Shown here: positions 28,082-50,242 of the stretch, in pieces
How positions within the stretch are numbered: the first letter of the stretch is position 1
Layout: each line of letters begins with the position of its first letter
From: Candidatus Moraniibacteriota bacterium
GTDB lineage: Bacteria > Patescibacteriota > Minisyncoccia > Moranbacterales > UBA1568
Assembly (NCBI GenBank): GCA_016699385.1
Contig: CP064974.1
Span: 806,791-870,790, forward strand
Length of the DNA stretch: 64,000 nt
Direction: 5' to 3'
Program-made: the position numbers and the translations under genes
The notes under the pieces: model-generated
What the model saw: the letters and a program-made list of their open reading frames with translations, nothing else
Told to the model about the DNA's origin: nothing
The model's database searches: none

Positions 28082-28949
28082 CAGTCCATGTCTGACTCAC
28101 ATCTGATTTCGGCGAAAAAAGCGAAATATACGCCATAATACAGACATACCAAGAAACAGCAAGTGGACGCTTTAGAAAAGACAGCGTGAGATGCTTCGCA
28201 AGGAGCGTCTTTGGATACCGATATTCCGCAAGAACCGCATCAGCGCCGTATTCATCTCGGAACAGACTCTGCGAAGAAAGAAACCGTCGACTCTGATTCT
28301 CATGATCACGCAGTGACTCAGGAACGCGTATAGCAATAGCTGCATCACGAGTCGAGGTATATCGAAATCCAAATTTCTTCACCAAGAGATACGAGTAAGC
28401 ATCTTCCCCGACACTTTCTCGAAAACGAAATTTCTCAAAAAATCTTCGAGAAAACGCGCGAGCGGCTCCATGACATTGGTAAATATTGTTCCCACTGTTC
28501 CATTCGGAGAACATATCGCACTTCAATTTATGTCCAGCCACAATGGCATATCCAAAGGCATTTCTCGGTGGAAGCGCGCGAAGCTCCGGAGAGACAAGAT
28601 CAGCACCCTCTCGAATACAACGAATCATTGTCTCAAATACCGAATCGTCCAAGAGAACAATATCAGCATCGAGCAAGATAACCGCATCCGAATCTTGAGA
28701 CATATTGAACACTTCATTCAAACGCTCCGACTTCCCCTTGCGCTGACCATCATCAAACACACATACTCCAGAGGATTCATATCGCTTGGCAATAACTGCC
28801 GTCTCATCCAAGCTCCCATCAGAAATCACCACAATTTTATCAAGAACGAACGAGTCGCATCGTTGCTTCAAGACATCTTCAAGCAAGAACGCAATATTTG
28901 CTTCTTCGTTATATGCTGCTATCCCAACAGTGACAGAAAATGTCCTCAT
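28053..28949 (-). CDS. glycosyltransferase family 2
   Basis: VGIAAYNEEANI...VISDGSLDET...LDADIV (DxD). The 4-nt start/stop overlap with the downstream giant gene indicates translational coupling. Confidence 0.85.
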   Translation of the reverse strand: MRTFSVTVGIAAYNEEANIAFLLEDVLKQRCDSFVLDKIVVISDGSLDETAVIAKRYESSGVCVFDDGQRKGKSERLNEVFNMSQDSDAVILLDADIVLLDDSVFETMIRCIREGADLVSPELRALPPRNAFGYAIVAGHKLKCDMFSEWNSGNNIYQCHGAARAFSRRFFEKFRFRESVGEDAYSYLLVKKFGFRYTSTRDAAIAIRVPESLRDHENQSRRFLSSQSLFRDEYGADAVLAEYRYPKTLLAKHLTLSFLKRPLAVSWYVCIMAYISLFSPKSDVSQTWTVASSSKNVR

Positions 28950-31900
28950 AGTGGTCGATTTTCATCTCGTACAGAAACCACCTCGAGCAGTTGTGCACTC
29001 GATAGATTCCAGTCAAACCTTTCCGCCCATTCCCTTGCAGAAATATTCATATTCAATCGAAGCTCGCGATCCCGAATAAGCAGTAGTATCTTTTCTGCAA
29101 AGGCATCAGCATCTCCATAGGGAACAAGGAATCCAGAATGAGGGTTTTTCACCGAATCACGCAAACCAGGAACATTGGAAGCGATAACTGGTGTACCACA
29201 GGCATTTGCCTCTATAGCAACAATTCCCCAACCCTCCATCATTGATGGATTTACAAGCATCCATGATTCTTGCAGAAGTTTCTTTTTCTCCTCTTCAGAA
29301 ACACGCCCGAGAAATTCTACATGATCTGTCCCAAGTCGAAGTGTTTCAAATGCCAATCGTTTAAGATTCATTTCATCATCGCCATCCCCGGCAATAATAA
29401 GCTTTGACTCCGGACGCTCAGCAACAACCATCTTGAACGCATGGAGAAGTACACCAACTGATTTATATGCTTTGAGTCGCCCGAGGTAAAGAAGCGTTGG
29501 TCGGTCGGATTTCTGTTCTACTGGAACGAAGTCATCAAGATGCACTCCAGGATGAACAACGCTGATTCCCGCCTTACCAATACCAAGAAGCTCCATCTCA
29601 TGTTGACTCGACTGCGACACAGTGACAAAAGGAGCTTTCGAATATACGAGAGGCATCATCGTCTTCTCTAGAAAGCTCGCGAGAAACGCCAGCGGCTTTG
29701 GAAGGAATTGAAAAAACACTTCCTGATGCACATGATGAAGTAGACACACTACTGGCTCCTTTACATAGAGCGGCGTGAAAAACGGAATGCCGTTTTCACA
29801 ATCGATAATCACATCAAATTTCCCGCGAAACCGCGCAAAATAATAGATAACTGCCCACACATAAACCAGATAGAATCCACCACGTCGCACGATGCGAATA
29901 CCATGTCGCGTCTCATGACGCGATTGATGCCCGTCATTTCCACAAAACATTGTCACTGAATTTCCATCAGCCACCCAACGCTTCGCAATTTCCTCGACAT
30001 AGACCTCGGCACCTCCGCCATAAGCATGCTTTGTATCTCGCCAATTGAAAATAAGGACTCGCTTCCCCTGAAGAGGAGCAGTCTCTTCCGGAAAACGACC
30101 TCGAAATGCATCAAGAAAATCTCGAACGGCTCGTTCAAAAAATCGAAAAGATGGCTCCGCAATATGAAGGGCGCTCAATAAGATCCACCCGCAAAGACTC
30201 GAAAGAAAGACGCTGTCTACAATATGGTCAAGCGATGAATGAAATAGAATAATGCCTATCGCTTCTGCTCCCGACATGAGAAGTGCTGCGAAAACGAAAA
30301 TGTATTGCTTTCGAGCCAAATGGTAGGTGACAATAATCGTTGAAAGCGTAAAGAAGGCAATGGCAATGGTGTACATAGGAAGGAACTGCAAAACCGCAGA
30401 AACTTTCCCACCAAAAAGAAACATCGATAAAGCTCCATCAAAAAACCCAAGCAAAACAACACTTCCAGCAACAACACAAGCAGAAAGTCCGTAGATGATC
30501 CAAAATATATTTTTCGTTCCCTTTCCAAGCCCTCTATTTCTCCCTACAAAAGTCACCATGAACATGTTTGGCATGGTGCCCAGGAAGAAAATTACCTTCC
30601 CAACCAACGAAAGAAGTGCGTACTCCCCAGCACCACGCTCAGACATGAAGTGCTTTGCCAATAGCACATCCACAGTCGTAAACATCGCCGTTGATACCGT
30701 CACAAGAATAGCTGCGGAGAAAAATTCCAATGGAAACGTTCTGGACTGAGGAGCATTCAGAAGAGATTTTCCTGCACCGGGAATAAGAAAAAACGAGGAA
30801 AATGCAGCAAGAATTACACTCACAGGAATCGACAGGTAAACATACTCATGCAAACCAGAAAACACGAAGCCTAGAGCAATAATCAGCTTACTTCCTGCTT
30901 CAACAAGAGAAAGAATTGCCGCCGCCCGAAATCGAAGCGCCCCCTGAAGATATCCGAAATTTCCAAATGCCAGGAGCCCACCAGCCAGAAGTGGCGCAAA
31001 CGAAAACAGAAGAAGAACATCGCCTACATGGAAAAATCGCGACAGTGCCGGGACAGCAAAGAGCCAAAGCGCTGTCACAAAAACAGACGCAATGAGCCCA
31101 ATCCGCATAATAGACGCCCAGAATACAAGCGCTTCCTTCTCACCATTTCTCGCAGAAAGATACGAGACTTCCCGATTGATTGTTGTTGAAAATGGACTAA
31201 TGAAAACAAGGGCGAGATACCAAAGTGTATTCAGAAGTGCAATCATCCCAAGCGTCTCGAACGACAACATTCTTCCCAAAAAGGCATTAAACGCAAAGTT
31301 CAGTACATTGGAAAGAAATGTCGCAATGACGAAAAGTCCTTCCGCAGAAAATGCAAAGTCCAAAATTGGCCGTGTATATTCTCGAGAAGAAAACTTCCGA
31401 AGTAAGGCACCAATAGACCGAGATTGTCCGGAAATCCAAGAAAATGTATTGGAAAAATATCTCAAAACTCCACGAGTACCCCTTTGCAAAGAAGTTGCAA
31501 AAAAATTCTCCGGCGACACCCGTATCGATGGCCCCAATACTTTCTCAACTTTTTTCTCTGAAGCGCCATCAAGAGTTTTCTTTTTTCGCTTCAACAAATG
31601 AAGTCCATGCGTCGTCTTCTCCCAATAGTGCGGTTTCACGAGAAGCTGATATGCCGCCATCACTGCCGCAACTGATACCAGAAGCCAGTAGAATGGAATA
31701 AGAAATACCCATTTCATAAGCTCCCACTTCTCCCGCTTGGCACACCCGATCATGTAGTAGTACATCGCGAGGAAGTTTCCGAAGATAAGCGAAACAACGG
31801 CCATGTAAAAAACCACCGGCGGATAGAGTGCCTCAATAGCTGGACCGACAACCGGACGAAAAGCAAAATACAAAATCGTCTGAAGCCACAAGAGTGGATT

Positions 31901-33763
31901 GATAAGCATGAAAGCAATCTTCCCTCCCACGACAAATTGAAAGAGGAGTGCGTGTATGCCGTTGTCACGGAAGAATTTCCCCGGTTGGCGCATATGGACC
32001 AGATATGTCTGCATATACCCCTTGATCCATCGCGACCGCTGGCGAATCCAATTCCCCACCTTGCTATTTGCTTCTTCGAGCGTCACCGAGTCTATGATGG
32101 CGGTCCGATGTCCGCGCGTAAAAATCCGCGCACCCAAATCGCAATCTTCCGTCACATTGAATGGATCCCACCCCTCGAGCGCGAGAAGATCTTCGCGGCG
32201 GAAGTGATTGCTCGTACCGCCTAGAGGAATAGACGTTGCAACGGATTGTAGTCCTGGGAGCGTCACATCAAACCACAGCGAATATTCCGCCGTGAAGAGC
32301 CGCGTCAAGATATTTTGATTGGCATTGAAATAGTTGAGCTTTGCCTGCAAACACCACACATCACGCGAGAGCGTCTGGAAACCGAGATACGCTTTCTTGA
32401 GTTGGAGCGGATCGGGAATATCCTCTGCATCATAGATCACGACATACTCGCCGCGCGTCATTGAGAGACCGTAATTGCACGCTTTTGGTTTCGTCTTCGG
32501 CTCGGAATGCGGCACCACGACTATGCGAACAAATGAGGGGAGATTCATCTCCGTTGCCGCATCTATAGTTTCCTGGTCGTTTTCCTCGAGAAGGAGGAGC
32601 GCCTCGAGTTTTTCCTTTGGCCAATCAATCTTCCCAATTGCATCGAGAAATCCCGGGAGAATATGCGCCTCCCGATAGAGCGGACACAGTATGGAATACA
32701 AAGGAAGCTGCTCATCACGAAGCGTGGCAAGCTCTTCGTCCGAAAAAGAAACTTCCGGTGGCTTCTTGAGACTGCGCACCACAAAGAAGGCGTTGAAGAG
32801 CACGTCGAGGAAATAGATACTCGTCAGTATCGCCGTCACCGCAATGAGCGTTGATATCGGACGAAGCAATACGCCCACTACAAATGCAAGCGCAATGCTA
32901 ATCACAACTATTTTCTGCCACGATACAAACGTATGGAGTGCGGATGAATGATGCGCGAGCGTCGAGTGCGTGACGAATCGCTTTCGATTGTGAGCAACTC
33001 CCGCTCCGAGCATACCTTGAACCTTCCCAGCACCAACCGTTTCCGGATGAATACGAAGTGGCGCTCTCTCGCGAAAGCGCAATTTTACTGCATTCCATCC
33101 AATTTCGCGGATTGCCTTCCAGAAAACAATTTTCGATTCCCCCGACGTCCGCTCAGCAAAGGCAATGGTCTGTCCGCCGATTTCATAGCCATAGTTCCGC
33201 GCCGTAAGCAGAAATTCCAAGTCGAATGTCCACGGATCGGGAGTAATCTTCACCTCATGGGCAACGCGCGCCCGAAACACCTTCATGCCCGACTGCACAT
33301 CAACATCGAGACCGTGCAAAAATCGAGAGAAAACGAGTGCAAAACCGCGACTCAAAACTCTCCGGAGAAGACTCGTCTCGCGCTCAATTCGATTGGCAAC
33401 GACAATATCAAACCCGTGATGCAACTTTGCGCACATATCCGGCAGCGCCTCAGGAGGATACTGCAAATCAGCATCAATCATGGCAATCGTCTCGAAGTGT
33501 GCATAATCGAATCCTTCAAGTATCGAGTATGCTTTTCCGCGATTGCCTTTTTTGAGATGAAAAAAAACAGGATACGTCTTTGAAAGTTTTTCAACTTCTG
33601 TCCGTGTCCCGTCTGTCGAATGATCATCGATAAAAATCACCTCGTATTCGATATCCGCCGCACGAAAAGATACGTCAACACGGCGGACCAAGTCCGCCAC
33701 ATTGCCCTCCTCGTTCAATGTCGGCACCAAAACCGAGATTCGCTCCCGTAGCATGAACTTCAC
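28946..33763 (-). CDS. 1605-aa multidomain glycan-assembly protein: GT2 (GtrB/DPM1-like) - TM - processive GT2 (QxxRW) - polytopic MOP/Wzx-like membrane domain - GT4
   Basis: aa 1-240: LVPTLNEEGNV...FIDDHSTDGT...IDADLQYPP (polyprenol-phosphate GT2). aa ~350-700: DAED...QRSRWIKGYMQT (synthase-type GT2). aa ~760-1180: more than 12 hydrophobic helices. aa ~1200-1605: GT4 (KRVLIFNW...EGWGIVAIEANACGTPVIAS). A single uninterrupted ORF. Confidence 0.85.
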   Translation of the reverse strand: MKFMLRERISVLVPTLNEEGNVADLVRRVDVSFRAADIEYEVIFIDDHSTDGTRTEVEKLSKTYPVFFHLKKGNRGKAYSILEGFDYAHFETIAMIDADLQYPPEALPDMCAKLHHGFDIVVANRIERETSLLRRVLSRGFALVFSRFLHGLDVDVQSGMKVFRARVAHEVKITPDPWTFDLEFLLTARNYGYEIGGQTIAFAERTSGESKIVFWKAIREIGWNAVKLRFRERAPLRIHPETVGAGKVQGMLGAGVAHNRKRFVTHSTLAHHSSALHTFVSWQKIVVISIALAFVVGVLLRPISTLIAVTAILTSIYFLDVLFNAFFVVRSLKKPPEVSFSDEELATLRDEQLPLYSILCPLYREAHILPGFLDAIGKIDWPKEKLEALLLLEENDQETIDAATEMNLPSFVRIVVVPHSEPKTKPKACNYGLSMTRGEYVVIYDAEDIPDPLQLKKAYLGFQTLSRDVWCLQAKLNYFNANQNILTRLFTAEYSLWFDVTLPGLQSVATSIPLGGTSNHFRREDLLALEGWDPFNVTEDCDLGARIFTRGHRTAIIDSVTLEEANSKVGNWIRQRSRWIKGYMQTYLVHMRQPGKFFRDNGIHALLFQFVVGGKIAFMLINPLLWLQTILYFAFRPVVGPAIEALYPPVVFYMAVVSLIFGNFLAMYYYMIGCAKREKWELMKWVFLIPFYWLLVSVAAVMAAYQLLVKPHYWEKTTHGLHLLKRKKKTLDGASEKKVEKVLGPSIRVSPENFFATSLQRGTRGVLRYFSNTFSWISGQSRSIGALLRKFSSREYTRPILDFAFSAEGLFVIATFLSNVLNFAFNAFLGRMLSFETLGMIALLNTLWYLALVFISPFSTTINREVSYLSARNGEKEALVFWASIMRIGLIASVFVTALWLFAVPALSRFFHVGDVLLLFSFAPLLAGGLLAFGNFGYLQGALRFRAAAILSLVEAGSKLIIALGFVFSGLHEYVYLSIPVSVILAAFSSFFLIPGAGKSLLNAPQSRTFPLEFFSAAILVTVSTAMFTTVDVLLAKHFMSERGAGEYALLSLVGKVIFFLGTMPNMFMVTFVGRNRGLGKGTKNIFWIIYGLSACVVAGSVVLLGFFDGALSMFLFGGKVSAVLQFLPMYTIAIAFFTLSTIIVTYHLARKQYIFVFAALLMSGAEAIGIILFHSSLDHIVDSVFLSSLCGWILLSALHIAEPSFRFFERAVRDFLDAFRGRFPEETAPLQGKRVLIFNWRDTKHAYGGGAEVYVEEIAKRWVADGNSVTMFCGNDGHQSRHETRHGIRIVRRGGFYLVYVWAVIYYFARFRGKFDVIIDCENGIPFFTPLYVKEPVVCLLHHVHQEVFFQFLPKPLAFLASFLEKTMMPLVYSKAPFVTVSQSSQHEMELLGIGKAGISVVHPGVHLDDFVPVEQKSDRPTLLYLGRLKAYKSVGVLLHAFKMVVAERPESKLIIAGDGDDEMNLKRLAFETLRLGTDHVEFLGRVSEEEKKKLLQESWMLVNPSMMEGWGIVAIEANACGTPVIASNVPGLRDSVKNPHSGFLVPYGDADAFAEKILLLIRDRELRLNMNISAREWAERFDWNLSSAQLLEVVSVRDENRPL

Positions 33764-38907: not shown

Positions 38908-40098
38908 TTATTTTTTTGGACAGACTGAATTGAAAAGTCGCCGATCTTCCTCAGTGAGCACCGGCTTCTGTTCACCAACAGACGGATACATAATGGATTC
39001 GCTTTCCGTCGCATGTCCGATACCGAGCGCATGTCCCATTTCATGAGCAAGAATAAGCACAAGGTCAGCATGATTATAAAACTGAAATACATCAATACGC
39101 GCTCCGGAAGCGTCCTTTGTATAAAGTCCCGTCGTGAATTCTTCTCGCATACCGTAGACTTGATTGTAACTGTCGACGGTCAGATTGAGCGCACTTGCCA
39201 TACGATTGAGACTCCCCGCAGTCGTATTCACCTGACCGGAGAGTGCATTCAACACGCCGAAGTCTTTCTCAAGCGACGCTTTTTCGTTATTCAAACTATT
39301 TCTCTCCTCTCCAATCATGGACGATTCTTTCTTGAGCGATTTCCGTTCATCCTCAAGCTCGTCATATTCATCGGGAGGTGCACCCCCTTGGGCATTCCAC
39401 TGTGCAACCAATTGCTCATACGACTGAAAACGATCGTTATACTCCGCCACCCGATGTTCGTACTCACGAAGTTCCTGCTCATATCGAGTGACGCGTGTAT
39501 CATATGCCGATTGTTTCCGATCAAACTCTTTCCGACTCGACTCATAGTCAGCGCGCAACGCTTCATAGGCGGACTTCTGACTTTCAATATCCGATGATGC
39601 TTCTTTTAAAGAATCCGTCTGTGCCTGACGATCATCAAAAACAAGGTTAAACGGAATCGCATCCGCATCAGCACGCTCCACAAAAAGGTCACGATCAAGC
39701 CCCGTTTCCCACAACGCCTCCGCTTCATGAATCGCCGACAAAAGCTCCGTCTCCGAGAAATGAAAACTCGGATCAAGAGTACCGGCGCGATAGGATAGAG
39801 GAAATCGACACGAATCATCCAGTGCCGGAATGACACGTGACAATACTGCACGCGAAGAAGACACTGTCGGCATCTTCCCCGTTTTCATCGCAAAGACAAT
39901 TGCAAACGAAGACGTCAAAACTACCACCGAAAGAAGTACTGCCCGAATCGCACGAAGAAAAAAAGTCATACAAAACAATAATATGTTGTCCTGTCTGGTA
40001 GAAATTCCTAGAAAAGTATCAAAGAGACATGCTTCTCGTACTGTTTTTCGGAAGGAATTATTTTTTTGCGACTTTCGAAAATGAGCGCGAAAAGACAA
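38908..40098 (-). CDS. membrane-anchored matrixin-like zinc metalloprotease (metzincin) with a central coiled coil
   Basis: C-terminal HEMGHALGIGH...SIMYP (HExxHxxGxxH plus Met-turn). N-terminal TM helix. Heptad-rich region (AYEALRADYESSRKEFDRKQSAYDTRVTRYEQELREYEH). The start may be 39969. Confidence 0.7.
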   Translation of the reverse strand: MSFRAHFRKSQKNNSFRKTVREACLFDTFLGISTRQDNILLFCMTFFLRAIRAVLLSVVVLTSSFAIVFAMKTGKMPTVSSSRAVLSRVIPALDDSCRFPLSYRAGTLDPSFHFSETELLSAIHEAEALWETGLDRDLFVERADADAIPFNLVFDDRQAQTDSLKEASSDIESQKSAYEALRADYESSRKEFDRKQSAYDTRVTRYEQELREYEHRVAEYNDRFQSYEQLVAQWNAQGGAPPDEYDELEDERKSLKKESSMIGEERNSLNNEKASLEKDFGVLNALSGQVNTTAGSLNRMASALNLTVDSYNQVYGMREEFTTGLYTKDASGARIDVFQFYNHADLVLILAHEMGHALGIGHATESESIMYPSVGEQKPVLTEEDRRLFNSVCPKK

Positions 40099-40123
40099 GA
40101 AAAAAATAATTCCTTCCGAAAAA
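40044..40123. repeat. perfect 24-bp inverted repeat (TTTTTCGGAAGGAATTATTTTTTT ... AAAAAAATAATTCCTTCCGAAAAA) with a 32-nt spacer
   Basis: Arms 40044..40067 and 40100..40123 are exact reverse complements. The repeat sits in the divergent region between the metalloprotease (-) and the hydrogenase small subunit (+). Confidence 0.9.
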
Positions 40124-40170
40124 CAAACTTTCTTAACAGGCTATTAGATTCATGCTACCATACTGGTACT

Positions 40171-40689
40171 ATGAATCAAACATCCAAAAAACTCCGCATC
40201 GGCTGGTTCACATTCACCTGTTGCGAGGACAGCACCGTGATTTTTACCGAGCTCATGAACGACCATTTTGAAGTATGGCGGAAAGTGCTCGATATTCGTC
40301 ACGCACGCGTCCTCCAAACCAAAAATGTGCTCGACGAACTCGACGTCGCCTTCATCGAAGGATCAATCAATTCCGAAGAGCAAGAAGAAAAACTCAAAGA
40401 GATTCGCGCCAAATCTACAAAACTCGTCGCGATTGGCGCCTGCGCCTGTACGGGCATGCCAAGCGCTCAGCGCAATGCCTTCCCACCCGAACTCAAAGAC
40501 AAAATTAAATTTCTCCTCGACCGATTCAACCAAGGTGAAAAAGTCAAAAAGCTTGACGAAGTCGTCACGGTCGACGAACGAGTCCAAGGATGCCCTATGA
40601 TCGAAGCCTCCTTCCTCGCCGTCGTCAACAAAATGCTCGTCGAATTCGGAATTATTCCAGCAGAAGCAGAAGCAAAAAATCCCGAATAA
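40171..40689 (+). CDS. [NiFe]-hydrogenase small subunit, reduced form (proximal Fe-S cluster only)
   Basis: KLRIGWFTFTCCEDS...DVAFIEGSINSEEQEEKLKEIRAKSTKLVAIGACACTG...GCPM. Colinear with the group-3b HydD N-terminal half, but with tandem Cys (CC) instead of CxxC, and it ends shortly after GCP (172 aa). The ORF opens at 40066. Confidence 0.75.
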   Translation: MNQTSKKLRIGWFTFTCCEDSTVIFTELMNDHFEVWRKVLDIRHARVLQTKNVLDELDVAFIEGSINSEEQEEKLKEIRAKSTKLVAIGACACTGMPSAQRNAFPPELKDKIKFLLDRFNQGEKVKKLDEVVTVDERVQGCPMIEASFLAVVNKMLVEFGIIPAEAEAKNPE

Positions 40690-40759: not shown

Positions 40760-42136
40760 ATGCATCAAATATCCGAACTCAGTCAATTCAGCATCGAAGA
40801 GCTCACCAAAGTCGAAGGTGCGGCTGGCATGAACGTGTTTATCGAAAACGGCACGGTCAAAAAAGTGGAATTCGCCATCAAGGAATTCAAGCGTTTCTAT
40901 ACGCACGCCATGGAAGGAAAGCCTATTGCTGCGATTCCTCAGCTCCTCGCGCGTATCTGTGGCACATGTTCCAATGCGCATTTGGTCGCAAGTATCGAGG
41001 CTGTCGAGAAAACTCTCGGCATCGTGCCGAGCGAGCAAACCATGCTCCTGCGCACCCTCACCTATCACGGACTCATCATCCGCGATCACGCACTCCACCT
41101 CTACCTCTTCTGTCTCCCTGATTTCTTTGGCAAAGATTCTCTCCTCGGCTTTGACGATGACGATCCCATTCAACACCAACTCCTCCACGATGCCTTTGCG
41201 GTCAAAGCGGCCGGCAATCATCTCGCAATTGCTGTCGCTGGTCGAAGTGTCCATGCGCCACTCCCTATGCCAGGTGGCTTCGGAAAAATTCCGGATACAA
41301 AAGCGCTCACCGAAGTCATCATAGAACTCGAGAATATCCGTCCAGCAGTACTTCGTCTCATCAAGGTCTTTACCGATGACCCCTCATCACTCATAAGAAA
41401 AAGCAATTACGCCGCACTCAGAAATAGCAAATTTTCTTATCTCGAAGGCGACCTCTGGGATATGAAAGGCTTCGTTGTTGATGAAGCAGGCTACCGTGAT
41501 CATCTCGAACACGTCGTCCTCCCCTATTCCCAAGCCTCAGCCTATACCTTCGATGGTGAAACCTATCGTGTTGGCGCGATTGCCCGACTCAATATCAATA
41601 GCTCCGGTCTCCACCCGCGCACCAAACACGATGCAGCGGAAGCGCTCGCTCTTTTCCCGTCCGACAATATCTTCCACAACAATCTCGCCCAAGCAATCGA
41701 AATCCTCCACTCCGTCGACGAGTCAATAGACTTTTTGAAACAAAAGACTTTCGTTTCCGAGCCGGCACAGAAAATCATTCCAAAGGCCGGCATCGGTGTC
41801 GGATTGGTCGAGGCGCCACGTGGCGCGCTCTATCACAAACTCGAAGTAAACGACAAAGGCATCGTTGAGCGTGGCGAAGTCGTCGTTCCGACGGGTCAGA
41901 ATCAAATCGCGATCGAGCTCGACCTTATCCAGTTCATCAATGAGCACATGGACATGGAAGAAGCGCAGATGAAGCTCGAATGCGAAAAAATCATCCGCGC
42001 TTATGATCCCTGCATGAGCTGCGGCGCCCACTTCCTCGAACTCAAAGTAAGTAAAAATGGCAAACCGCTGAAGAAAATTCTTTCAAAACCCATAAAGAAA
42101 ACTTCAGCAAAAAAGCACAGCCATCATCACGAGTGA
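40760..42136 (+). CDS. [NiFe]-hydrogenase large subunit (group 3-like) with a C-terminal extension
   Basis: L1 motif RICGTCSNAH near the N-terminus. L2 motif DPCMSCGAH followed by a ~32-aa tail (FLELKVSKNG...HSHHHE) of the kind removed by the maturation endopeptidase. Confidence 0.9.
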   Translation: MHQISELSQFSIEELTKVEGAAGMNVFIENGTVKKVEFAIKEFKRFYTHAMEGKPIAAIPQLLARICGTCSNAHLVASIEAVEKTLGIVPSEQTMLLRTLTYHGLIIRDHALHLYLFCLPDFFGKDSLLGFDDDDPIQHQLLHDAFAVKAAGNHLAIAVAGRSVHAPLPMPGGFGKIPDTKALTEVIIELENIRPAVLRLIKVFTDDPSSLIRKSNYAALRNSKFSYLEGDLWDMKGFVVDEAGYRDHLEHVVLPYSQASAYTFDGETYRVGAIARLNINSSGLHPRTKHDAAEALALFPSDNIFHNNLAQAIEILHSVDESIDFLKQKTFVSEPAQKIIPKAGIGVGLVEAPRGALYHKLEVNDKGIVERGEVVVPTGQNQIAIELDLIQFINEHMDMEEAQMKLECEKIIRAYDPCMSCGAHFLELKVSKNGKPLKKILSKPIKKTSAKKHSHHHE

Positions 42137-42187
42137 TATAGAAAATTCGTCCAAGAAAACCTTACTGGAGCTCATCTCAAAAATAAA

Positions 42188-42229
42188 ATACTCTCCACAT
42201 ATGCCACAACATATGAGAGAGTACTTTTT
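42188..42229 (+). terminator. rho-independent terminator after the hydrogenase large subunit
   Basis: ~15-bp imperfect stem (ATACTCTCCACATATG/CATATGAGAGAGTACT) followed by TTTTT. Confidence 0.55.
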
Positions 42230-42266
42230 GTAAGCTCAGAAACTATTCGCCTGAAGCCACCACATT

Positions 42267-42710
42267 TCATCCCTCAGATATTGCAATCACGCGCTTTCCC
42301 GAAAGAAAGGCAATCACACAAATCATAGGGGAAAACACCACCAAGGAAGCTATGAATTTAGATTCATCAGCAGGTTCAGCAAAAAAATAAAGCGCTGTCA
42401 AAATTTCGAAAATCACGAACGATAAGAGAGCTTCTCGAACGACTATCCCAGAGAAAAATAGAAATGAATCATTCCGAAGCCAATGCTTCTTCCCCTTCCG
42501 ACTGACAGTAAGGTGAAAAGAACTAAGAGTCGAAGAGGAGAGGATGCTGAAAATAAGCCAGTCGAAACGAGCATACTTCGTATGATCTCCAGGAAAGATA
42601 GAAAACACAAAAATCCCAGAGATGACTACTGTCAAAAAAGCAGCTACAAAGAAAACCCGACTGGAAAAAATACTCCCAGACATATCGACATTAATCATAA
42701 CAGCCTCCAA
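42267..42710 (-). CDS. hypothetical membrane protein
   Basis: 147 aa with 3-4 hydrophobic helices. Last gene of the minus-strand operon that also contains the hydrogenase protease. Confidence 0.45.
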   Translation of the reverse strand: MEAVMINVDMSGSIFSSRVFFVAAFLTVVISGIFVFSIFPGDHTKYARFDWLIFSILSSSTLSSFHLTVSRKGKKHWLRNDSFLFFSGIVVREALLSFVIFEILTALYFFAEPADESKFIASLVVFSPMICVIAFLSGKRVIAISEG

Positions 42711-42716
42711 TTTTTG

Positions 42717-43136
42717 CTAACAAAGAACTTCCGAAAGCTCCCGAGACACAGCAGTGAGAGCAACACTTTCGGCAATCCCTTCCGGCACGCCGAGAATTTG
42801 CGGTTCAAAGGACGGGTCGAGCTTCTTGGCGAGAAGCAAGAGTGTCGAGAGATCGTAGTCATGCGCCGTCATGCCGGCATTGCGGGATCGGGCGATGTCA
42901 TCAATCGAAAGCCACGCTACTTCGTCGAGTCCTCGAACCGTATCGAGAATAGCCCATTTTCCCCGCTTCGGCAAGTCTATTTCATTGGGGTCTTCGATTA
43001 CAAAGTGCGCATGTGGAAATCGATCCCGCAATTGTGGCACGAGAATTACCGGAAGGTTATCCAAGAGTAAATCCGGATTGCCAAACACCGATACGGAAAA
43101 CGCCGCTCTATTTTTTTCGCTCATAGGCATTGGCAA
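42717..43136 (-). CDS. hydrogenase maturation endopeptidase (HycI/HybD family, peptidase A31)
   Basis: 139 aa. VFGNPDLLLDN...DTVRGLDEVAWLSIDD...HDYDLSTLLLLAK...ILGVPEG is colinear with HybD/HycI (GxGN, D, H motifs). Confidence 0.75.
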   Translation of the reverse strand: MPMPMSEKNRAAFSVSVFGNPDLLLDNLPVILVPQLRDRFPHAHFVIEDPNEIDLPKRGKWAILDTVRGLDEVAWLSIDDIARSRNAGMTAHDYDLSTLLLLAKKLDPSFEPQILGVPEGIAESVALTAVSRELSEVLC

Positions 43137-43851
43137 AGGCGATACTTTTCTGTGTATACGCGCGAAGTCGCGTCACTGTTTGTTCCGAAAGCGTCTCACA
43201 TGGCACACCCCAATGAATGGATATCCATGCGCCGGGCGCAAGAAGATCGATATCGATATCGGCAGAGAGATCTCGCACAAGCCGACGAGAAACCGGCAAA
43301 CCGAGTGAGAAAACGCCATGATCATCTCGGCTAAGTGGCTCAATAAGCACATCGATAAACGGTCCCGAAACAGTGAGCACTTTCCCCCAACTCACGATAC
43401 ACTCGGCAACCGCTGTCCAATCATCATCGTGAAGCAACTCATGTTGCGTCTCGCGCCACACATTGAGCACATGAAATGAATGGTGCGGGAAGCCGCCTCG
43501 AACCACCTTCTGCCCGATAGTATCAAAACGCTCCCGCCCCGTTTTCTTCTTCACATCGAGCGCATCAAGAAGCCCCAGATACTTCTTTGGCGAAAACGTA
43601 TCAAGCAAACGATTCCCAATCCAGTATGCCTCAACAACTCCATCATCAAACGGGTCTCGAATACCATTCCCTTCCGCAATGTGCAAGAGGTACGGATAGA
43701 GATTTTGGAATCGCTCAAGGATAGCCGAAAGCCGTGGATCACTCTCACCCGCATCCAGATATTCTTTCATTGTCTTATTTGCATCGGGTCCGCAGTAATG
43801 CAACCGATTCGGCCCAAACGCATACCGACTACATCGAAACACTCCATCCAT
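43108..43851 (-). CDS. conserved hypothetical protein (overlaps and is co-oriented with the hydrogenase protease gene)
   Basis: 247-aa ORF. Its stop overlaps the protease start by 29 nt. No family recognised. Confidence 0.5.
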   Translation of the reverse strand: MDGVFRCSRYAFGPNRLHYCGPDANKTMKEYLDAGESDPRLSAILERFQNLYPYLLHIAEGNGIRDPFDDGVVEAYWIGNRLLDTFSPKKYLGLLDALDVKKKTGRERFDTIGQKVVRGGFPHHSFHVLNVWRETQHELLHDDDWTAVAECIVSWGKVLTVSGPFIDVLIEPLSRDDHGVFSLGLPVSRRLVRDLSADIDIDLLAPGAWISIHWGVPCETLSEQTVTRLRAYTQKSIAFANAYERKK

Positions 43852-43945
43852 ATCCTCCTACTCTACACGAACCAAAAAAAAGCGCAAAAAAAACACCTAG
43901 CCGATAACCGATTAGGTGCTTCACTCAAAGAGAATGAATGAAATT

Positions 43946-44311
43946 TCAAGACGATGCCACCGCTCTCGTTATAAGAATATGAACATCCTTGCCACACTGA
44001 TTTATCCTCTCCAAAACAGCCTCCTTGCCTATAAAGTAACTAGCAAATATTTCCCGCTCACACTGTATCACAAGCTCGTTAGCCTGCCCCTCCAATAAAA
44101 CGAGTTCTCTTCGTGTAAGCCGCGTGTCACAGCCAACGCATCCATAGTGATCACTGTTATCAAAAACATCCCCAAGAGAACTCAGCAATTGATCCGTGAG
44201 CCGACGCAATTTCCCAAGCGCCGCTAATGTTGCCACAGCAGGATCCTTATCGAAATTCGACACAACTGGAACCTGACCAAGAGGAAAAATTTGACTAGAA
44301 GCTGAATGCAT
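43946..44311 (-). CDS. hypothetical protein with a CxxC motif
   Basis: 121 aa. HYGCVGCD plus two further Cys residues. No family recognised. Confidence 0.4.
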   Translation of the reverse strand: MHSASSQIFPLGQVPVVSNFDKDPAVATLAALGKLRRLTDQLLSSLGDVFDNSDHYGCVGCDTRLTRRELVLLEGQANELVIQCEREIFASYFIGKEAVLERINQCGKDVHILITRAVASS

Positions 44312-44397
44312 GACATTCTCCTTTTTCTTTGGTTGATTTTAAGAAACAACGAATTTCTGCAAAGTTTAACACAAAAAATAGTTCATGTCAATATTAT

Positions 44398-44721
44398 TTA
44401 GGCACTTCTATGAATATCATTGTCTTTCTCCCCATCAAGGCGGCGAATCAAATCACGCATGGTCCAAATACCAGCAAGGAGGAGCATAGCAAAGAGAGTC
44501 TTCAAGAGAGAAGCGACGGTCACGAAGAACATCGTTTCCGAGAAGAATTTTCCGAGAGATTCCGAGAGAAGAAGCACAACGAGCGCTCCCAAGAAAAGCT
44601 TATACGACACATCCAATTCTTTCTCTACTCTCCAGACAATACCCGCCGTAAAAACAAGTGCAACGAAAAGAAACAATAGTGTTGCCATGTCAGCAACAAG
44701 CGTAGTAAGCGACAGAGTCAT
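44398..44721 (-). CDS. small hypothetical membrane protein
   Basis: 107 aa with 3 hydrophobic helices. Its start overlaps the stop of the upstream gene by 4 nt. Confidence 0.4.
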   Translation of the reverse strand: MTLSLTTLVADMATLLFLFVALVFTAGIVWRVEKELDVSYKLFLGALVVLLLSESLGKFFSETMFFVTVASLLKTLFAMLLLAGIWTMRDLIRRLDGEKDNDIHRSA

Positions 44722-46244
44722 AGTCGATTCACCTCCTTTCCTCTTCGCGCACCAAAGAAACCTCGTTCAAGAAGCGCCTCTTCACTAACAAAGCGCGATG
44801 CGTGAGCATACAGCCAATACTCCCGCACGAAGAGAAGGAGAAGGAGCAAAAGAAGAAGAATTGACCAGAGCGATGCCCAACCAAAAAATCGCACAGCATC
44901 ATTCCATGTGACGACTATTCCCCCGCCCATATCAAAGAGCGGGAGTTCAACCACTCGAAACGGAGCCTCTGCTTCAACATCGACAGTGCCAACATGAAGT
45001 CGCGCCGAAACACGATAGTCCCCCGACATCCACTCACGCGGAATCGCAATCGCCTCACGATAGTCTCCTCCCCGATGCACCACTGTCGAATGCGAACTTT
45101 CAAAGACTCCTTCGTCGAGAGCATTGCGCACAACATACGAAACTTCGCCGACACTCCCTTCGAGCGACGGGTCCAATTGATTTATAGTCAATACGGTTTC
45201 GAGTGTGCGCCACTGAAATACCCAGCCACCCGTATTTGCTACCGCAAGAGAGATTGATACAGGCATTCCCGGCATTGTCCCCTGCAATCGCTCCGGCAAA
45301 GTTCTCTCGGAACTTGACATGGGAGGCGCATGATATGTCGGAAGAGATACCAAAGCAACGGCCGGTTTTTTCTTCTTCTTTTTGTCATGATCATCGTCAC
45401 CATCCGAACTCGAAGAAGAAGTAATAGTGAGTGTCAATGTATCACTTGCCGTCTGAAGCGAGTACAGGGGATGTGTCACAGTCACCGTCAACACATAGCT
45501 TCCAGACGGAAGCGATGAGGTAGGCGTCCACTCCCAATATCCATTGGAATTGGTTAAAAAGGTAGCATACACTGATGATTTCCCGACAAGTGAAACCGAG
45601 ATACTTGCATTTGGCATATTGCTTGTCCCCGTAAGCGTCGGTGTTCTATCAGAAACAGAGACACTCGAACGAAGAGACACATCCGTGCCGGCAACCGTCA
45701 CAATAGTAAGTGTTGGAGTAAGAGAAGCGATGCAATCCGAAGGTGTCGAAACCACAACCGGGTCAGACGAAGCAACGCCAGCTCCCATCGGGCCATAGGC
45801 AACGACGACATAGGAATAATCTACAGCAGCACTCACATTCGTGTCAGCATATTCCGAATCAGTGAGTCCTGATACAAGAAGCGCGCTGTCACGGTACACA
45901 TCAAACGACGTTGCGCCACTATCGTCCGCCCAATCAAGACTCACAGAAAGCGTCCCTAATGGACATGCTGTATCAGCAGTCACCACCGGCACAATAGGTG
46001 GCGCTGGCACAGTCGCTGAAACCGTCACATCATCCGCAAAAGCGCTCCACGTTGCACGAAAGTCAGCAAAAGAAAACGTCGGCCCCCAGAGAAACCCCAG
46101 AAATGCATAGACAAAAAGGATGCCCGTGGTTGCCCATGCATGTATTCGAATCATCAATCGTATTCGCCGCGAGCGAACCGTGCATTGCCTGAGAGAGCTC
46201 ATGAAATACATTATACCATTTCTCCCAACGCTCCTTCGAAACAA
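44718..46244 (-). CDS. cell-surface protein with FN3/Ig-like domains, a lysine run and a C-terminal membrane anchor
   Basis: N-terminal signal/anchor. SFDVYRDS...YSYVVVAYG (FN3-like). Ser/Thr-rich beta-rich region. DDDHDKKKKKKP linker. C-terminal WSILLLLLLLLLF helix. Confidence 0.55.
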   Translation of the reverse strand: MFRRSVGRNGIMYFMSSLRQCTVRSRRIRLMIRIHAWATTGILFVYAFLGFLWGPTFSFADFRATWSAFADDVTVSATVPAPPIVPVVTADTACPLGTLSVSLDWADDSGATSFDVYRDSALLVSGLTDSEYADTNVSAAVDYSYVVVAYGPMGAGVASSDPVVVSTPSDCIASLTPTLTIVTVAGTDVSLRSSVSVSDRTPTLTGTSNMPNASISVSLVGKSSVYATFLTNSNGYWEWTPTSSLPSGSYVLTVTVTHPLYSLQTASDTLTLTITSSSSSDGDDDHDKKKKKKPAVALVSLPTYHAPPMSSSERTLPERLQGTMPGMPVSISLAVANTGGWVFQWRTLETVLTINQLDPSLEGSVGEVSYVVRNALDEGVFESSHSTVVHRGGDYREAIAIPREWMSGDYRVSARLHVGTVDVEAEAPFRVVELPLFDMGGGIVVTWNDAVRFFGWASLWSILLLLLLLLLFVREYWLYAHASRFVSEEALLERGFFGARRGKEVNRL

Positions 46245-46250
46245 CTCTGC

Positions 46251-48161
46251 CTATTCTCCAAGGAGACTCTTGAGAAGCGTATTCAGCCGCAGAGAAGCTA
46301 CACCTACCACACGATCAGCCCCACCATAATAGATAAACACTCTTCCATTTTGGAGTGTTGCTCCGCATGGGAAGACCACATTTGGCACAATGCCGATTTT
46401 TTCATACTCCATTTCCGGCTCAAAGAGTGGCGTATCACTCCGCGCGAGTACACGCTCCGGATGATCGATATCCAGAAGCGCCGCACCCAAACGATAGACA
46501 GATCCCTCACTTGAGACACCGTGATACAGGAGAAGCCATCCGCTATCCGTCCGAATAGGCACTGTGTTCAATCCGATTTTTTGGTCATCCCACATGCCCT
46601 GCCGAGGAAGAATAAACGGGCTCTGTGACAGCATCGCTCCATCTGAAAATTCCAAATCATCAAAAAAATTGATATCTATCGACGGCTGTATCCGATGAAG
46701 CACTACATATTTCCCATGAATCTTTTCCGGAAAAACACAAGCATCCTTATCATCGATGCCTGGCGGAGATATGAGTTTTGGCAGCGACCAACAACTCCAC
46801 TGCCGTGCAAGGAAGTCCTTTCGCACGATGGAAGTCAGTGCGACACGAGGAGCATTCACCCCATCTACCGCCGTATAGAGCATATATATTGTGTCATCGA
46901 TGCGAGTGAGTCGAGGATCTTCACATCCGGAATACCCGCCACCAGCACGCATTTCAAACGACTCTCGAGGCACATACGCCGGCTCCAAACTCCGTTCATC
47001 AATCGTCATGCCATCACGACTCGATGCATATCCCAAAACCGACGCGTCCCCATTCGAAAGCGCGCGATACAAAATATGTGTCTTCCCACCATCGCGAATC
47101 GCTCCCGGATTGAATACTCCTTTCGCTTCCCAGGCATGTTCCGGAATCGGCAAAAGAACAGGGTTTTTGGGCACACGCTCAAAAGAAACTTTCTTGTCTG
47201 GATAGGTAAGCGCTCGAAGTAATTTCTTCACATCACACGTCGCCACGCAACACGTCGAGTCTGCCGCACCGTAGTAAAGAAACAGCTTCCCTCGCCGGAT
47301 GAGTGCACCAGACGGAAACACAATGTTTGGAACCTTCCCATACAGTTCATATTCTTCCTCAGGAACAAGAAGTGGTGCCGTTGTTCGTGCAAGAATTTTC
47401 CGAGGATCATCCCGGTCAAGAAGCACTGCCTCAACACCAAAAATTTTCCGTTCAGTAAAATAATTCCGTATATGTGAATACACTAAGAGCCAGCCATCCG
47501 ACGTCAAGACGGGTGACGCTCCGATTTCAACATGATCAGTATCCCCTCTCTGGAGACGAATCTCATGTGTCTGAAGGCTTGAATACCATGCATTCCAATG
47601 CGCTTCCGACCACATATCTTCCACGCGATCAAACAGGGCGAGTCCGATAGTTGATGGCGGTCGATCGGTATTCGCCGTCAATATCGCTGCAAATTTCCCT
47701 TTCACCTTCTCCGGAAACAGCGTCATCGCCTTCGCATTAAAAGGCGTCACAAGATGTTTCTCATCTATTCTTCGCAAATTCTTCGAAAGCGCAACAGCCA
47801 CCTTGATGCCCTCTGCCGAGAAAGGATAAGTCGACAGCGCCGTGTAGAAAATAAAGTATGTCCCGTCTATTTCCGTGACGCGCGGATCCTCACAACCAAA
47901 TCGCTCCCACGATTCCTCAGGAACGATAAGCCGTCGGTGCTTTTCGAAATGAATTCCATCAGCACTCGTCGCATGCCCAATTGAAGACACTTCGTATGTT
48001 TCGCCCTCATGCAACACGCGTGACGATTGTGCTCGATACACCAGATCCGTCCATTTCTCTCTTCGCACCGGACAGCCGTTAAATGCCGCGGATCGTTCCC
48101 AGAAATTTTCACTTTCCCCTACCAAAATCGGATTCTCATTTGATCGTTCCACTCGAATCAT
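46251..48161 (-). CDS. glycoside hydrolase family 130 protein with two tandem GH130 domains (beta-mannoside phosphorylase-like)
   Basis: Both halves carry GH130 hallmarks (GCEDPRVTEIDGTYFIFYTA / GCEDPRLTRIDDTIYMLYTA; NIVFPSG / NVVFPCG; YYGAAD / YYGGAD). Confidence 0.8.
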   Translation of the reverse strand: MIRVERSNENPILVGESENFWERSAAFNGCPVRREKWTDLVYRAQSSRVLHEGETYEVSSIGHATSADGIHFEKHRRLIVPEESWERFGCEDPRVTEIDGTYFIFYTALSTYPFSAEGIKVAVALSKNLRRIDEKHLVTPFNAKAMTLFPEKVKGKFAAILTANTDRPPSTIGLALFDRVEDMWSEAHWNAWYSSLQTHEIRLQRGDTDHVEIGASPVLTSDGWLLVYSHIRNYFTERKIFGVEAVLLDRDDPRKILARTTAPLLVPEEEYELYGKVPNIVFPSGALIRRGKLFLYYGAADSTCCVATCDVKKLLRALTYPDKKVSFERVPKNPVLLPIPEHAWEAKGVFNPGAIRDGGKTHILYRALSNGDASVLGYASSRDGMTIDERSLEPAYVPRESFEMRAGGGYSGCEDPRLTRIDDTIYMLYTAVDGVNAPRVALTSIVRKDFLARQWSCWSLPKLISPPGIDDKDACVFPEKIHGKYVVLHRIQPSIDINFFDDLEFSDGAMLSQSPFILPRQGMWDDQKIGLNTVPIRTDSGWLLLYHGVSSEGSVYRLGAALLDIDHPERVLARSDTPLFEPEMEYEKIGIVPNVVFPCGATLQNGRVFIYYGGADRVVGVASLRLNTLLKSLLGE

Positions 48162-48382: not shown

Positions 48383-50242
48383 CTATTCATCTCCTAACTT
48401 CACATACCTTGTTGGTACCACCTTGTTGGCATGGAGGAGCGATTCGAGCAGGCGAGCAATAGGCACCGTCGCCACGCACGTCACCGTATCTGCGCTTCCA
48501 TAGTATACAAAAAGTGTCTCATCCTTCACAACTGCACCGCAGCTATAGACTATCTGCGGTTTCGAGCCCTCGTTCTCATACCAAACCTTCGGCTCGAGAA
48601 TGGGCGCTTTTGATCGAGCAATCACTTTGGTTGGATCTTTCTTGTCAAGAATCATTGCCCCAAGCTTGTACCCGCAATCCCGTGTCGTCGCATGATAGAG
48701 CACAAGCCAACCCGCTTTCGTTTTTAGAGGAGATGGCCCAACACCCCGAACCAACAGTTCCCAGCGTCCCTTGAGTGGCACTTTTACATGATCACTTCGA
48801 ATAAACGTATTCCCGTCAAAATCAAGATTGTCAAAATAATCGACGCGTACCTCGGGACTAATACTATGAAGAATAGCAAATTTCCCATGAATCTTCTCAG
48901 GGAAAATCGTCCAGTTCTTGTGTATCTCACCGGGTGGCGAAATCATCACCGGTCGCGACCAGTTCCACTTCCGCGAGAGAAAGTCGTCAACCGAAATTTT
49001 TGTAAGCGCCACGCGCGGAAAATTATATCCATCAAATGCCGTGTACGTCATGTAGAGCATATCATCAACACGTGTCACTTTCGGATCTTCACTTCCACCC
49101 CACCCACCGCCAGAAGTATATGGGGTCGAGCACTGTTCCTGAATCCTTGTCACGCGCACGTCATCGAGCGTAGGTGAAGAAATATAAATAGGAACATCAA
49201 GCCGTTCATGCACCGAGAACCCGTCTCGACTGTTGGCATACCCAACCGTCGACAAACCATTCGTGCCAATAGCGCGATAAAGAATATGCACCATGCCATC
49301 ATCGGAAAGAAATGCCGCCGGATTGAAGACTTCTCCTGACTCCCAGTTATGTTCCTTTCGAGAGGTAAGAATAGGATTCCCTGGATAGCGTTCGAGTTTT
49401 ACGCCATCCGGAATCACCGAAACCGTAGCATTTCGAGAAACTTTCCAAAATTGTGCAATTTCTTCAACAAAAAGTTTCCCATCAACGCTCCAATACAACA
49501 ATACCTTCTTCGCACGCGGGACAGCGCCGATAAATCGAATGTCTTTGCTCTGCCATGAGTCCGGAGACTCCCACATTGCCTCCTCTGATCGCCAAAGTAC
49601 CGTCTGTGGATTGCTCTTCTCTACCAATGCCGAACCGATAACCCATCGACCATCTCTATTTTCCGAGGCATACATGATAAGAATTCCCTTCCCAGCAGAG
49701 ATTACAGCAACGACATTCATCGGACCTTCATCGAAATATCCCTCCCGCGGTTTGAGAAGTGTCGTCCGTTTGACATTCCAATGTTTCAAGTCGGTCGAGA
49801 GCGCCAATTTGATACTGCGCTCACCAAAAAAAAGCCCGTAATGAGCTTCACTCCCTTCTTGTAAAGCAACAGCAATTCCTGTTTCGCGAAAACCATCCTT
49901 CACAGAAAGACTATCCCATTCGACACCGTCACGGGATGTGCCGGACAATATCTGAACACCTCCGCTGCGCGCTCTTTTCTTGTATGAAATAAAAAATGAA
50001 TCGCCAGAAGCATTTAGTGATGAAATGCGAAAAACATCCGAGATATCCGGATGCAAGCGAAGACTCCCTAAAAGTTTTGTAAAAACAAGCTCCTTTCGCG
50101 TCGAGTCGAAAGAAACGCCATTCGAACTACTCAAAACAAAAATAGGACGATTTGCCTTCCCTTCTACATCACGCACGTAGAGATACACTGTTTGTCCAAC
50201 CGACGAAACCCCAAGAACCAAACGGTCCAAAGAACGTTCCAT
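48383..50242 (-). CDS. GH130 family protein (C-terminal GH130 domain plus N-terminal beta-propeller-like domain)
   Basis: C-terminal half GSEDPKVTRVDDMLYMTYTA...IVYSCGAV...YYGSAD is paralogous to 46251..48161. Confidence 0.8.
   Translation of the reverse strand: MERSLDRLVLGVSSVGQTVYLYVRDVEGKANRPIFVLSSSNGVSFDSTRKELVFTKLLGSLRLHPDISDVFRISSLNASGDSFFISYKKRARSGGVQILSGTSRDGVEWDSLSVKDGFRETGIAVALQEGSEAHYGLFFGERSIKLALSTDLKHWNVKRTTLLKPREGYFDEGPMNVVAVISAGKGILIMYASENRDGRWVIGSALVEKSNPQTVLWRSEEAMWESPDSWQSKDIRFIGAVPRAKKVLLYWSVDGKLFVEEIAQFWKVSRNATVSVIPDGVKLERYPGNPILTSRKEHNWESGEVFNPAAFLSDDGMVHILYRAIGTNGLSTVGYANSRDGFSVHERLDVPIYISSPTLDDVRVTRIQEQCSTPYTSGGGWGGSEDPKVTRVDDMLYMTYTAFDGYNFPRVALTKISVDDFLSRKWNWSRPVMISPPGEIHKNWTIFPEKIHGKFAILHSISPEVRVDYFDNLDFDGNTFIRSDHVKVPLKGRWELLVRGVGPSPLKTKAGWLVLYHATTRDCGYKLGAMILDKKDPTKVIARSKAPILEPKVWYENEGSKPQIVYSCGAVVKDETLFVYYGSADTVTCVATVPIARLLESLLHANKVVPTRYVKLGDE

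Follow-up and report, generated by a model that had tools for sequence, protein, structure and literature searches.

In the 64,000-nucleotide (nt) stretch of the Candidatus Moraniibacteriota genome that was analysed here (contig CP064974.1, positions 806,791 to 870,790; the window), the genes hydS and hydL of a [NiFe] hydrogenase face two overlapping genes on the opposite strand, which encode a 247-amino-acid (aa) protein of the DUF6390 family and a 139-aa protease candidate. We consider it probable, at roughly 0.6, that the DUF6390 protein is a dedicated HypC-type chaperone of the large subunit HydL, and that the coupled A31-type protease then trims HydL after His424. The maturation of [NiFe] hydrogenases is usually taught as the work of HypA-F plus a protease. 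A concrete assignment is thereby proposed for a widespread protein without a function name in Pfam or NCBI, with relatives in at least 548 species-representative genomes: a putative HypC-type domain that is preceded, in the same chain, by a new Cys/His domain, located in hydrogenase or hyp clusters from the Candidate Phyla Radiation (CPR) to Mycobacterium and Sulfobacillus, in which C20, H124, H127, C151 and H213 are pinpointed as the residues of interest. The two-subunit 'hyd2' hydrogenase of the CPR, a puzzle in the literature, also gains two conserved partners in this way.

The DUF6390 protein and its HypC-like domain

The 247-aa gene (43108-43851, minus strand) had been described in the initial annotation as being of unknown family, whereas it already belongs to Pfam family PF19927 (DUF6390), which it matches over the full length (residues 3-244 against profile positions 5-241 of 244, E 1.7e-47). 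NCBI names its relatives 'DUF6390 family protein' only, and a literature search returned no paper that names DUF6390 or that describes its HypC-like domain, architecture, conserved residues or distribution. The AlphaFold2 model (predicted local distance difference test, pLDDT, 84; predicted template modelling score, pTM, 0.85) is helical over residues 1-151 and forms a beta-barrel plus helix over residues 154-242. The protein can accordingly be divided into an all-alpha N-terminal domain (residues 1-150; 43402-43851, minus strand) with the invariant residues C20, H124 and H127, and a HypC-like C-terminal domain (residues 151-247; 43111-43401, minus strand) with the invariant residues C151 and H213. 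All five are invariant from the CPR to Chloroflexota, Sulfobacillus and Mycobacterium; conservation of C7 and C218 is limited to the CPR.

The top four PDB matches of the model in a Foldseek search were all HypC of T. kodakarensis (27-30% identity). Alignment of the C-terminal domain (78 sequences) with a HypC profile by hhalign gave a probability of 92.4% (E 5e-7) and placed C151 on HypC Cys2 and H213 on His51, each of the two being invariant in 78/78 sequences. HypC was again the best match, in the same register though non-significant, when a hidden Markov model (HMM) of DUF6390 was compared with the PDB, and BLASTP aligned the Mycobacterium DUF6390 protein with the HypC of Sulfobacillus at E 0.002. 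In HypC, Cys2 and His51 bind Fe(CN)2CO and contact HypD and the large subunit (PMC12134894; PMC9002611). Predicted fold, profile and pairwise sequence evidence thus indicate that the C-terminal half of the DUF6390 protein is a HypC-family domain.

A divergent large-subunit endopeptidase

The 139-aa open reading frame (ORF; 42717-43136, minus strand) had been called a HycI/HybD-type protease. It yielded no match in Pfam, in NCBIfam, in a phmmer search against the PDB or with a family profile against the PDB, and nearly all of its 69 homologues lack an annotation. In their alignment G19-N20, D26, D65 and H92-D93 are invariant. When the AlphaFold2 model (pLDDT 79.5, pTM 0.74) was compared with the PDB by Foldseek, [NiFe] maturation proteases made up six of the top seven matches (E 3e-4 to 2e-2, template modelling score, TM-score, 0.40-0.63), the best being T. 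kodakarensis HybD (5ija, 3e-4), E. coli HycI (2e85, 7.6e-4) and E. coli HybD (1cfz, 1e-3). The top matches had TM-scores of 0.55-0.63; the third-ranked one is an uncharacterised Wolinella protein (3pu6). The alignment of the family with canonical HycI by hhalign reached E 1e-4 at a probability of merely 56%, and in it D26, D65 and H92 coincide with the metal triad Asp16/Asp62/His90 of HycI.

The comparison of related loci points in the same direction. All hyd2-type HydL proteins carry a tail of 7-35 aa past DPCxxCxxH, typically FLKVxW, and the protease is encoded in 41/42 loci with a tailed HydL. The HydL proteins of the hyd1 type, in contrast, stop exactly at the His in seven of seven cases, and a protease was nearby in 0/7. 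The 139-aa protein thus is in all likelihood a divergent HybD/HycI-type (MEROPS A31-like) C-terminal endopeptidase of the large subunit; the earlier call is borne out by the predicted fold, the catalytic triad and the comparative pattern, and by no sequence model. In the sample examined this protease clade is confined to the hyd2 loci of the CPR. Since it escapes the Pfam and NCBIfam models that were tried, surveys of CPR maturation genes may undercount proteases.

The protease gene overlaps the stop of the DUF6390 gene, which suggests translational coupling of the two. The overlap had been given as 29 nt; it is real, but this length requires a TTG start at 43136. On identical or near-identical contigs the protease is called from ATG 43130 (137 aa) or ATG 43124 (135 aa), leaving an overlap of 23 or 17 nt, and the likely start is ATG 43130.

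The hydrogenase and the tail of its large subunit

The large-subunit gene hydL (40760-42136, plus strand; PF00374) has ShyA, the sulfhydrogenase alpha subunit, as its best NCBIfam match (3e-71), yet far under the equivalog cut-off. Both ligand motifs, RICGTC and DPCMSCGAH, are intact. The product of hydS (40066-40689, plus strand; PF01058 Oxidored_q6, 8e-19) is truncated; its start is probably M36 at 40171, giving a protein of about 172 aa, and the median length of its homologues is 172 aa. The enzyme of the window fits a group-3b-like [NiFe] hydrogenase of the CPR hyd2 type. This clade was reported to consist of a large and a truncated small subunit, with no beta or gamma subunit and with a function 'supported with unknown genes', and a neighbouring family, 'fam002', was reported to have some HypC homology (PMC7304191); neither fam002 nor hyp genes are listed in the supplements of that paper.

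Beyond His424, HydL has a Lys-rich tail of 34 aa (42032-42133) that ends in HSHHHE. The HydL tails of the Moraniibacteria clade measure 34-35 aa and end in His clusters (HHSHHH, HTHHHHG and others in loci L001-L005), and those of the remaining hyd2 HydL proteins 7-11 aa (FLKVxW...). The His-tipped tail may be a built-in nickel-binding segment that is cut off by the protease. In several related hyd2 loci (L003, L010, L025, L055, L058) hydS and hydL are split by inserts of about 0.7-2.3 kb, which in L025 hold a 675-aa ORF.

Linkage of DUF6390 to [NiFe] hydrogenases

Gene neighbourhoods were taken from the best 80 of the at least 548 species-representative genomes with DUF6390 relatives. Linkage was counted over the 39 loci whose flanks extend 8 kb or more in each direction, with a [NiFe] large subunit being sought within 10 kb. 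Such a subunit was present in 37/39, so that at the locus level a check for homologues that are common without hydrogenases did not refute the linkage; one of the two loci without it (L045) still has the protease, and a large subunit, protease or HypC was present in 38/39. Directly downstream of DUF6390 and on the same strand, a protease gene follows in 42/43 clustered loci. Given this adjacency and the large-subunit linkage, the pairing of DUF6390 and protease is not due to chance. The linkage of DUF6390 to [NiFe] hydrogenases spans at least five phyla.

In the hyd2 loci of the CPR the genes recur in the order EamA transporter, DUF6390, protease and convergent hydL-hydS, often with genes for a Pyr_redox_2 oxidoreductase, a 4Fe-4S ferredoxin and NifU/NifS-like proteins farther out. 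No canonical hypC or other hyp gene was found within 10 kb in about 50 of these two-subunit loci. In the four-subunit hyd1 loci of the CPR, DUF6390 adjoins a canonical HypC gene, and in L059 and L075 a block HypC-EamA-DUF6390 lies between hydG and hydS. The Chloroflexota show the order group-1-type hydL, HycI, HypA, HypC, EamA, DUF6390, followed in several loci by a NikA-like ATP-binding cassette (ABC) importer. On a plasmid of Sulfobacillus acidophilus DUF6390 comes after hypF-hypC-x-hypD-hypE-tatA, the small tatA-like gene lying between hypE and DUF6390, and is followed by the structural genes, protease, hupF, hypA and hypB. On a plasmid of Mycobacterium intracellulare DUF6390 directly follows hypD with a 4-nt overlap; the cluster there also holds three further genes of the HypC family and matches the group-2a synton of Frankia in gene order (PMC11879354).

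In 47-55 of the 80 loci, both in hyd1 and hyd2 loci of the CPR and in Chloroflexota, DUF6390 is directly preceded, and often overlapped, by an EamA/DMT-family gene (PF00892; e.g. L013:9052-9990, L056:9100-9993, L069:8955-9974). No EamA homologue was found in the window, whose clade has lost the gene. The upstream gene of about 310 aa was also considered as a DUF6390 paralogue; this was rejected, as it is the EamA transporter itself, and its clustering with DUF6390 by single linkage arose from over-extended ORF calls.

Canonical hyp genes are absent from the window, as had been noted: tblastn and phmmer searches of the 64 kb with the E. coli proteins revealed no HypA-F and no canonical HycI, and HMMs built from the HypC, HypA and HycI proteins of related loci were negative as well. 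The initial annotation supposed that the neighbouring proteins may substitute for or supplement the Hyp functions. DUF6390 stands beside complete hypABCDEF sets in cultured organisms and hence acts there in addition to the Hyp machinery, not in its stead, which supports the second half of that supposition and argues against the first.

Proposed maturation route and alternatives

From the folds, conserved residues, synteny and co-variation of tail and protease described above we infer ligand binding, binding partners and an order of events. The two translationally coupled genes would form a conserved unit that finishes an oppositely encoded [NiFe] large subunit. In the C-terminal domain of the DUF6390 protein, C151 and H213 would be the counterparts of Cys2 and His51, through which HypC holds and passes on the Fe(CN)2CO group, and the helical N-terminal domain of about 150 aa would add C20, H124 and H127 as three invariant potential ligands. 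The protein may bind apo-HydL and carry or stabilise the iron moiety, or a metal, during its insertion, acting as a hydrogenase-dedicated paralogue in the manner of HybG, HupF and HoxL. After metal insertion, the A31-type endopeptidase would cut HydL between ...DPCMSCGAH and FLELK..., and removal of the 34-aa tail would let the active site close and HydS dock.

Several observations weigh against this reading. The DUF6390 protein has no match to PF01455 (HupF_HypC) at E<=0.1 and none to a custom HypC HMM at E<=10, and its N-terminal domain is without a PDB relative and without similarity to any E. coli Hyp protein. Its HypC-equivalent Cys is internal, at position 151 behind a 150-aa domain, unlike the N-terminal Cys that is deemed essential in the literature, and the chemistry may therefore differ; this caveat is eased by the existence of other N-terminally extended HypC-like proteins in mycobacterial and Sulfobacillus clusters. 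Finally, the contrast in tails and proteases is essentially one between two clades (hyd1 and hyd2), so that the Fisher p-value of 9e-8 overstates independence.

Two Cys and three His that are invariant across phyla might also be expected of a protein that handles nickel. The DUF6390 protein could then be a metallochaperone for nickel (or another metal) instead of a carrier of Fe(CN)2CO, with C20, H124, H127, C151 and H213 forming a nickel site that feeds HydL, in cooperation with the EamA transporter that most lineages encode upstream and, in the Chloroflexota, with Nik-like ABC importers. The position of the EamA gene in 47-55/80 loci agrees with this, as do the SBP_bac_5 ABC transporter genes directly downstream in L065, L068 and L076 and the lack of HypA and HypB within 10 kb in the CPR loci. 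However, the sole recognisable domain of DUF6390 is HypC-like and carries the residues that are specific to the handling of the iron moiety, and both HypA and HypB are encoded alongside DUF6390 in Sulfobacillus and L068. EamA transporters, moreover, are not known to move nickel. A nickel chaperone therefore appears unlikely.

The chaperone reading could also be extended for the two-subunit hyd2 systems of the CPR, in which the DUF6390 protein would be the only HypC-type protein. Its Cys/His domain would then take part of the scaffold role of HypD or of the nickel-delivery role of HypA in cis, in a streamlined route in genomes of about 1 Mb, with the co-transcribed EamA transporter, or in the clade of the window the His-tipped 34-aa tail, supplying a precursor or nickel. 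We regard this extension as speculative and quite unlikely.

Since hyd2 consists of a large and a truncated small subunit only and needs unknown genes (PMC7304191), the DUF6390 protein might instead be a structural or electron-transfer partner of the enzyme, standing in as an Fe-S or redox subunit for the missing beta and gamma subunits, and the conservation of C7, C20, C151 and C218 in the CPR members would be in line with such a function. Yet DUF6390 is found equally beside the four-subunit hyd1 and the group-1 and group-2 enzymes, which have partners of their own, and in Mycobacterium, Sulfobacillus and the Chloroflexota it lies among the hyp genes, not the structural genes. With C7 and C218 not conserved outside the CPR, too few Cys are left for a cubane cluster, and a redox subunit is very unlikely.

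The 121-aa and 147-aa reading frames

The four minus-strand ORFs, convergent with hydS and hydL, were re-read from the sequence at the positions given before. Besides DUF6390 and the protease these are an ORF of 147 aa (42267-42710), which is also called as 143 aa from ATG 42698, and one of 121 aa (43946-44311); from the 121-aa ORF downwards the spacing is 94 nt, then the overlap, then 6-18 nt. As described, the 147-aa product is a membrane protein, with 3-4 hydrophobic segments, and the 121-aa product has one CxxC motif (CVGC, residues 58-61). Together with the 247-aa protein they had been proposed as three novel maturation factors. Only the 247-aa protein proved to be linked to [NiFe] hydrogenases, and even this one is not wholly new in view of its HypC-family C-terminal half.

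Neither of the two small ORFs occurs in any of the 80 related loci. This includes L001, which lacks both although its DUF6390 and HydL proteins are 91% and 95% identical to those of the window. In L001, L002, L003 and L005, with HydL proteins 90-95% identical to that of the window, unrelated ORFs occupy both slots, small transmembrane (TM) proteins taking the place of the 147-aa one, and in most hyd2 loci there is no gene between protease and hydL. Neither ORF has a Pfam or NCBIfam match. A search of 5.8 billion sequences with the 121-aa ORF yielded two protein clusters, that of the ORF itself, which is identical to IPJ67_04155 of a Candidatus Moraniibacteriota genome, and one at 87% identity; relative to the latter (L082) its ratio of nonsynonymous to synonymous substitution rates (dN/dS) is 0.60, with 100% DNA identity in the flanking genes. 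For the 147-aa ORF, 1.84 billion representatives contained a single true relative, at 51% identity. The gene of this relative fills the corresponding slot next to a HydL with 85% identity to that of the window, which indicates that the 147-aa ORF is probably a real gene for a fast-evolving or replaceable small membrane protein. Both ORFs are lineage-restricted bystanders in variable slots, and their proposed part in maturation is not supported. That all four ORFs make up one dedicated maturation operon, as their common strand and short gaps, the promoter-like and terminator-like elements at the two ends (see below) and the 147-aa homologue that retains its slot might suggest, is highly improbable given the absence of the two small ORFs from the related loci, the low number of their database relatives (two and three, respectively), the replaced slot contents, the empty space before hydL and the dN/dS of 0.6, and a conserved role for such an operon is already largely refuted.

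In the 130-nt convergent gap between hydL and the 147-aa ORF, an AT-rich hairpin with T-runs on both strands (42189-42223) looks like a bidirectional terminator. The fold of 42137-42266 has an energy of -22.1 kcal/mol (z -2.56); a consensus terminator scan did not pick up the hairpin. Upstream of the 121-aa ORF a sigma-70-like match (44363-44391, minus strand; TTGACA-17-TAAACT with TG) is a weak candidate for the operon promoter: the seven promoter-like matches of the region do not exceed the shuffled expectation of 5.4.

The replaceable slots that flank the DUF6390-protease pair correspond to 42267-42710 and 43852-44397 in the window. The downstream-slot proteins of L001-L005 have 3-4 TM segments, and some end in G(I/F)APR. 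Upstream of the 121-aa ORF, and possibly in one transcription unit with it, lies the gene for a 107-aa protein with three TM segments (44398-44721), which has weak IspA-like matches only and is conserved within the clade, with 69-76% identity to its counterparts in L001 and L005. A mosaic of mostly transitions covers the 121-aa ORF and points to recombination between strains; hypermutation in the style of a diversity-generating retroelement was considered and rejected on account of this pattern. The mosaic extends over 43900-44400 and 46200-47150, in comparison with the metagenome contigs L082, L083, L085 and L086, which combine long tracts of 100% identity to the window with discrete blocks of about 10% divergence, again mostly by transitions; it is consistent with homologous recombination within a population. 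Nearby, two large genes at 46251-48161 (two matched stretches) and 48383-50242 have matches to GH130 (mannoside phosphorylase-like), and a 1605-aa protein (28946-33763) is a fusion of several GT2 and GT4 glycosyltransferase domains.

Comparison with known systems

The locus shares with the CPR hyd2 systems of Jaffe et al. (2020; PMC7304191) the restriction to hydL and a truncated hydS, and related loci likewise have an FAD oxidoreductase and a ferredoxin near the hydrogenase genes. That study did not define the neighbour family, its two-domain architecture, the protease or the correlation between tail and protease.

With HypC, HybG, HupF and HoxL (PF01455) the DUF6390 protein has in common the predicted oligonucleotide/oligosaccharide-binding (OB) barrel plus C-terminal helix in its last 97 residues, residues that correspond to the essential Cys2 and to the conserved His51, and a place in hydrogenase or hyp clusters, often adjoining a canonical hypC or hypD. 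Unlike HypC, it has a conserved helical Cys/His domain before its Cys, and whereas the known extension of HupF is C-terminal, that of DUF6390 is N-terminal. Many genomes encode both it and a canonical HypC, which marks it as a separate paralogue rather than an orthologue. A HypC-like domain after an N-terminal domain is also seen in a 236-aa 'HypC/HybG/HupF family' protein of M. intracellulare (motif CVTCSD), which shares gene clusters (group 2a/1h) with DUF6390. The N-terminal domains of the two are, however, unrelated and without BLASTP similarity, and the NCBI annotation pipeline PGAP assigns the 236-aa protein to the HypC family but not DUF6390. Proteins of this second N-terminally extended HypC-like kind, with CVTCSD ahead of the barrel, are encoded in the Mycobacterium and Sulfobacillus clusters (L088:11055-11765, L087:9203-9454). 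We regard DUF6390 as a new form of HypC-type protein; Jaffe et al. had remarked in passing on 'homology to hypC' in a neighbour family.

The 139-aa protein, in turn, agrees with HybD, HycI and HoxM (PF01750, A31) in its predicted alpha/beta fold, in an Asp/Asp/His triad of equal order and spacing, in the N-terminal GN...D motif, and in that the adjoining large subunit bears a C-terminal extension past DPCxxCxxH. It differs from them in escaping Pfam, NCBIfam and HMM-versus-PDB searches, with 14-24% identity to solved structures, and in the shorter length of its family (about 125-137 aa). The known endopeptidase family thereby gains a new and highly divergent representative.

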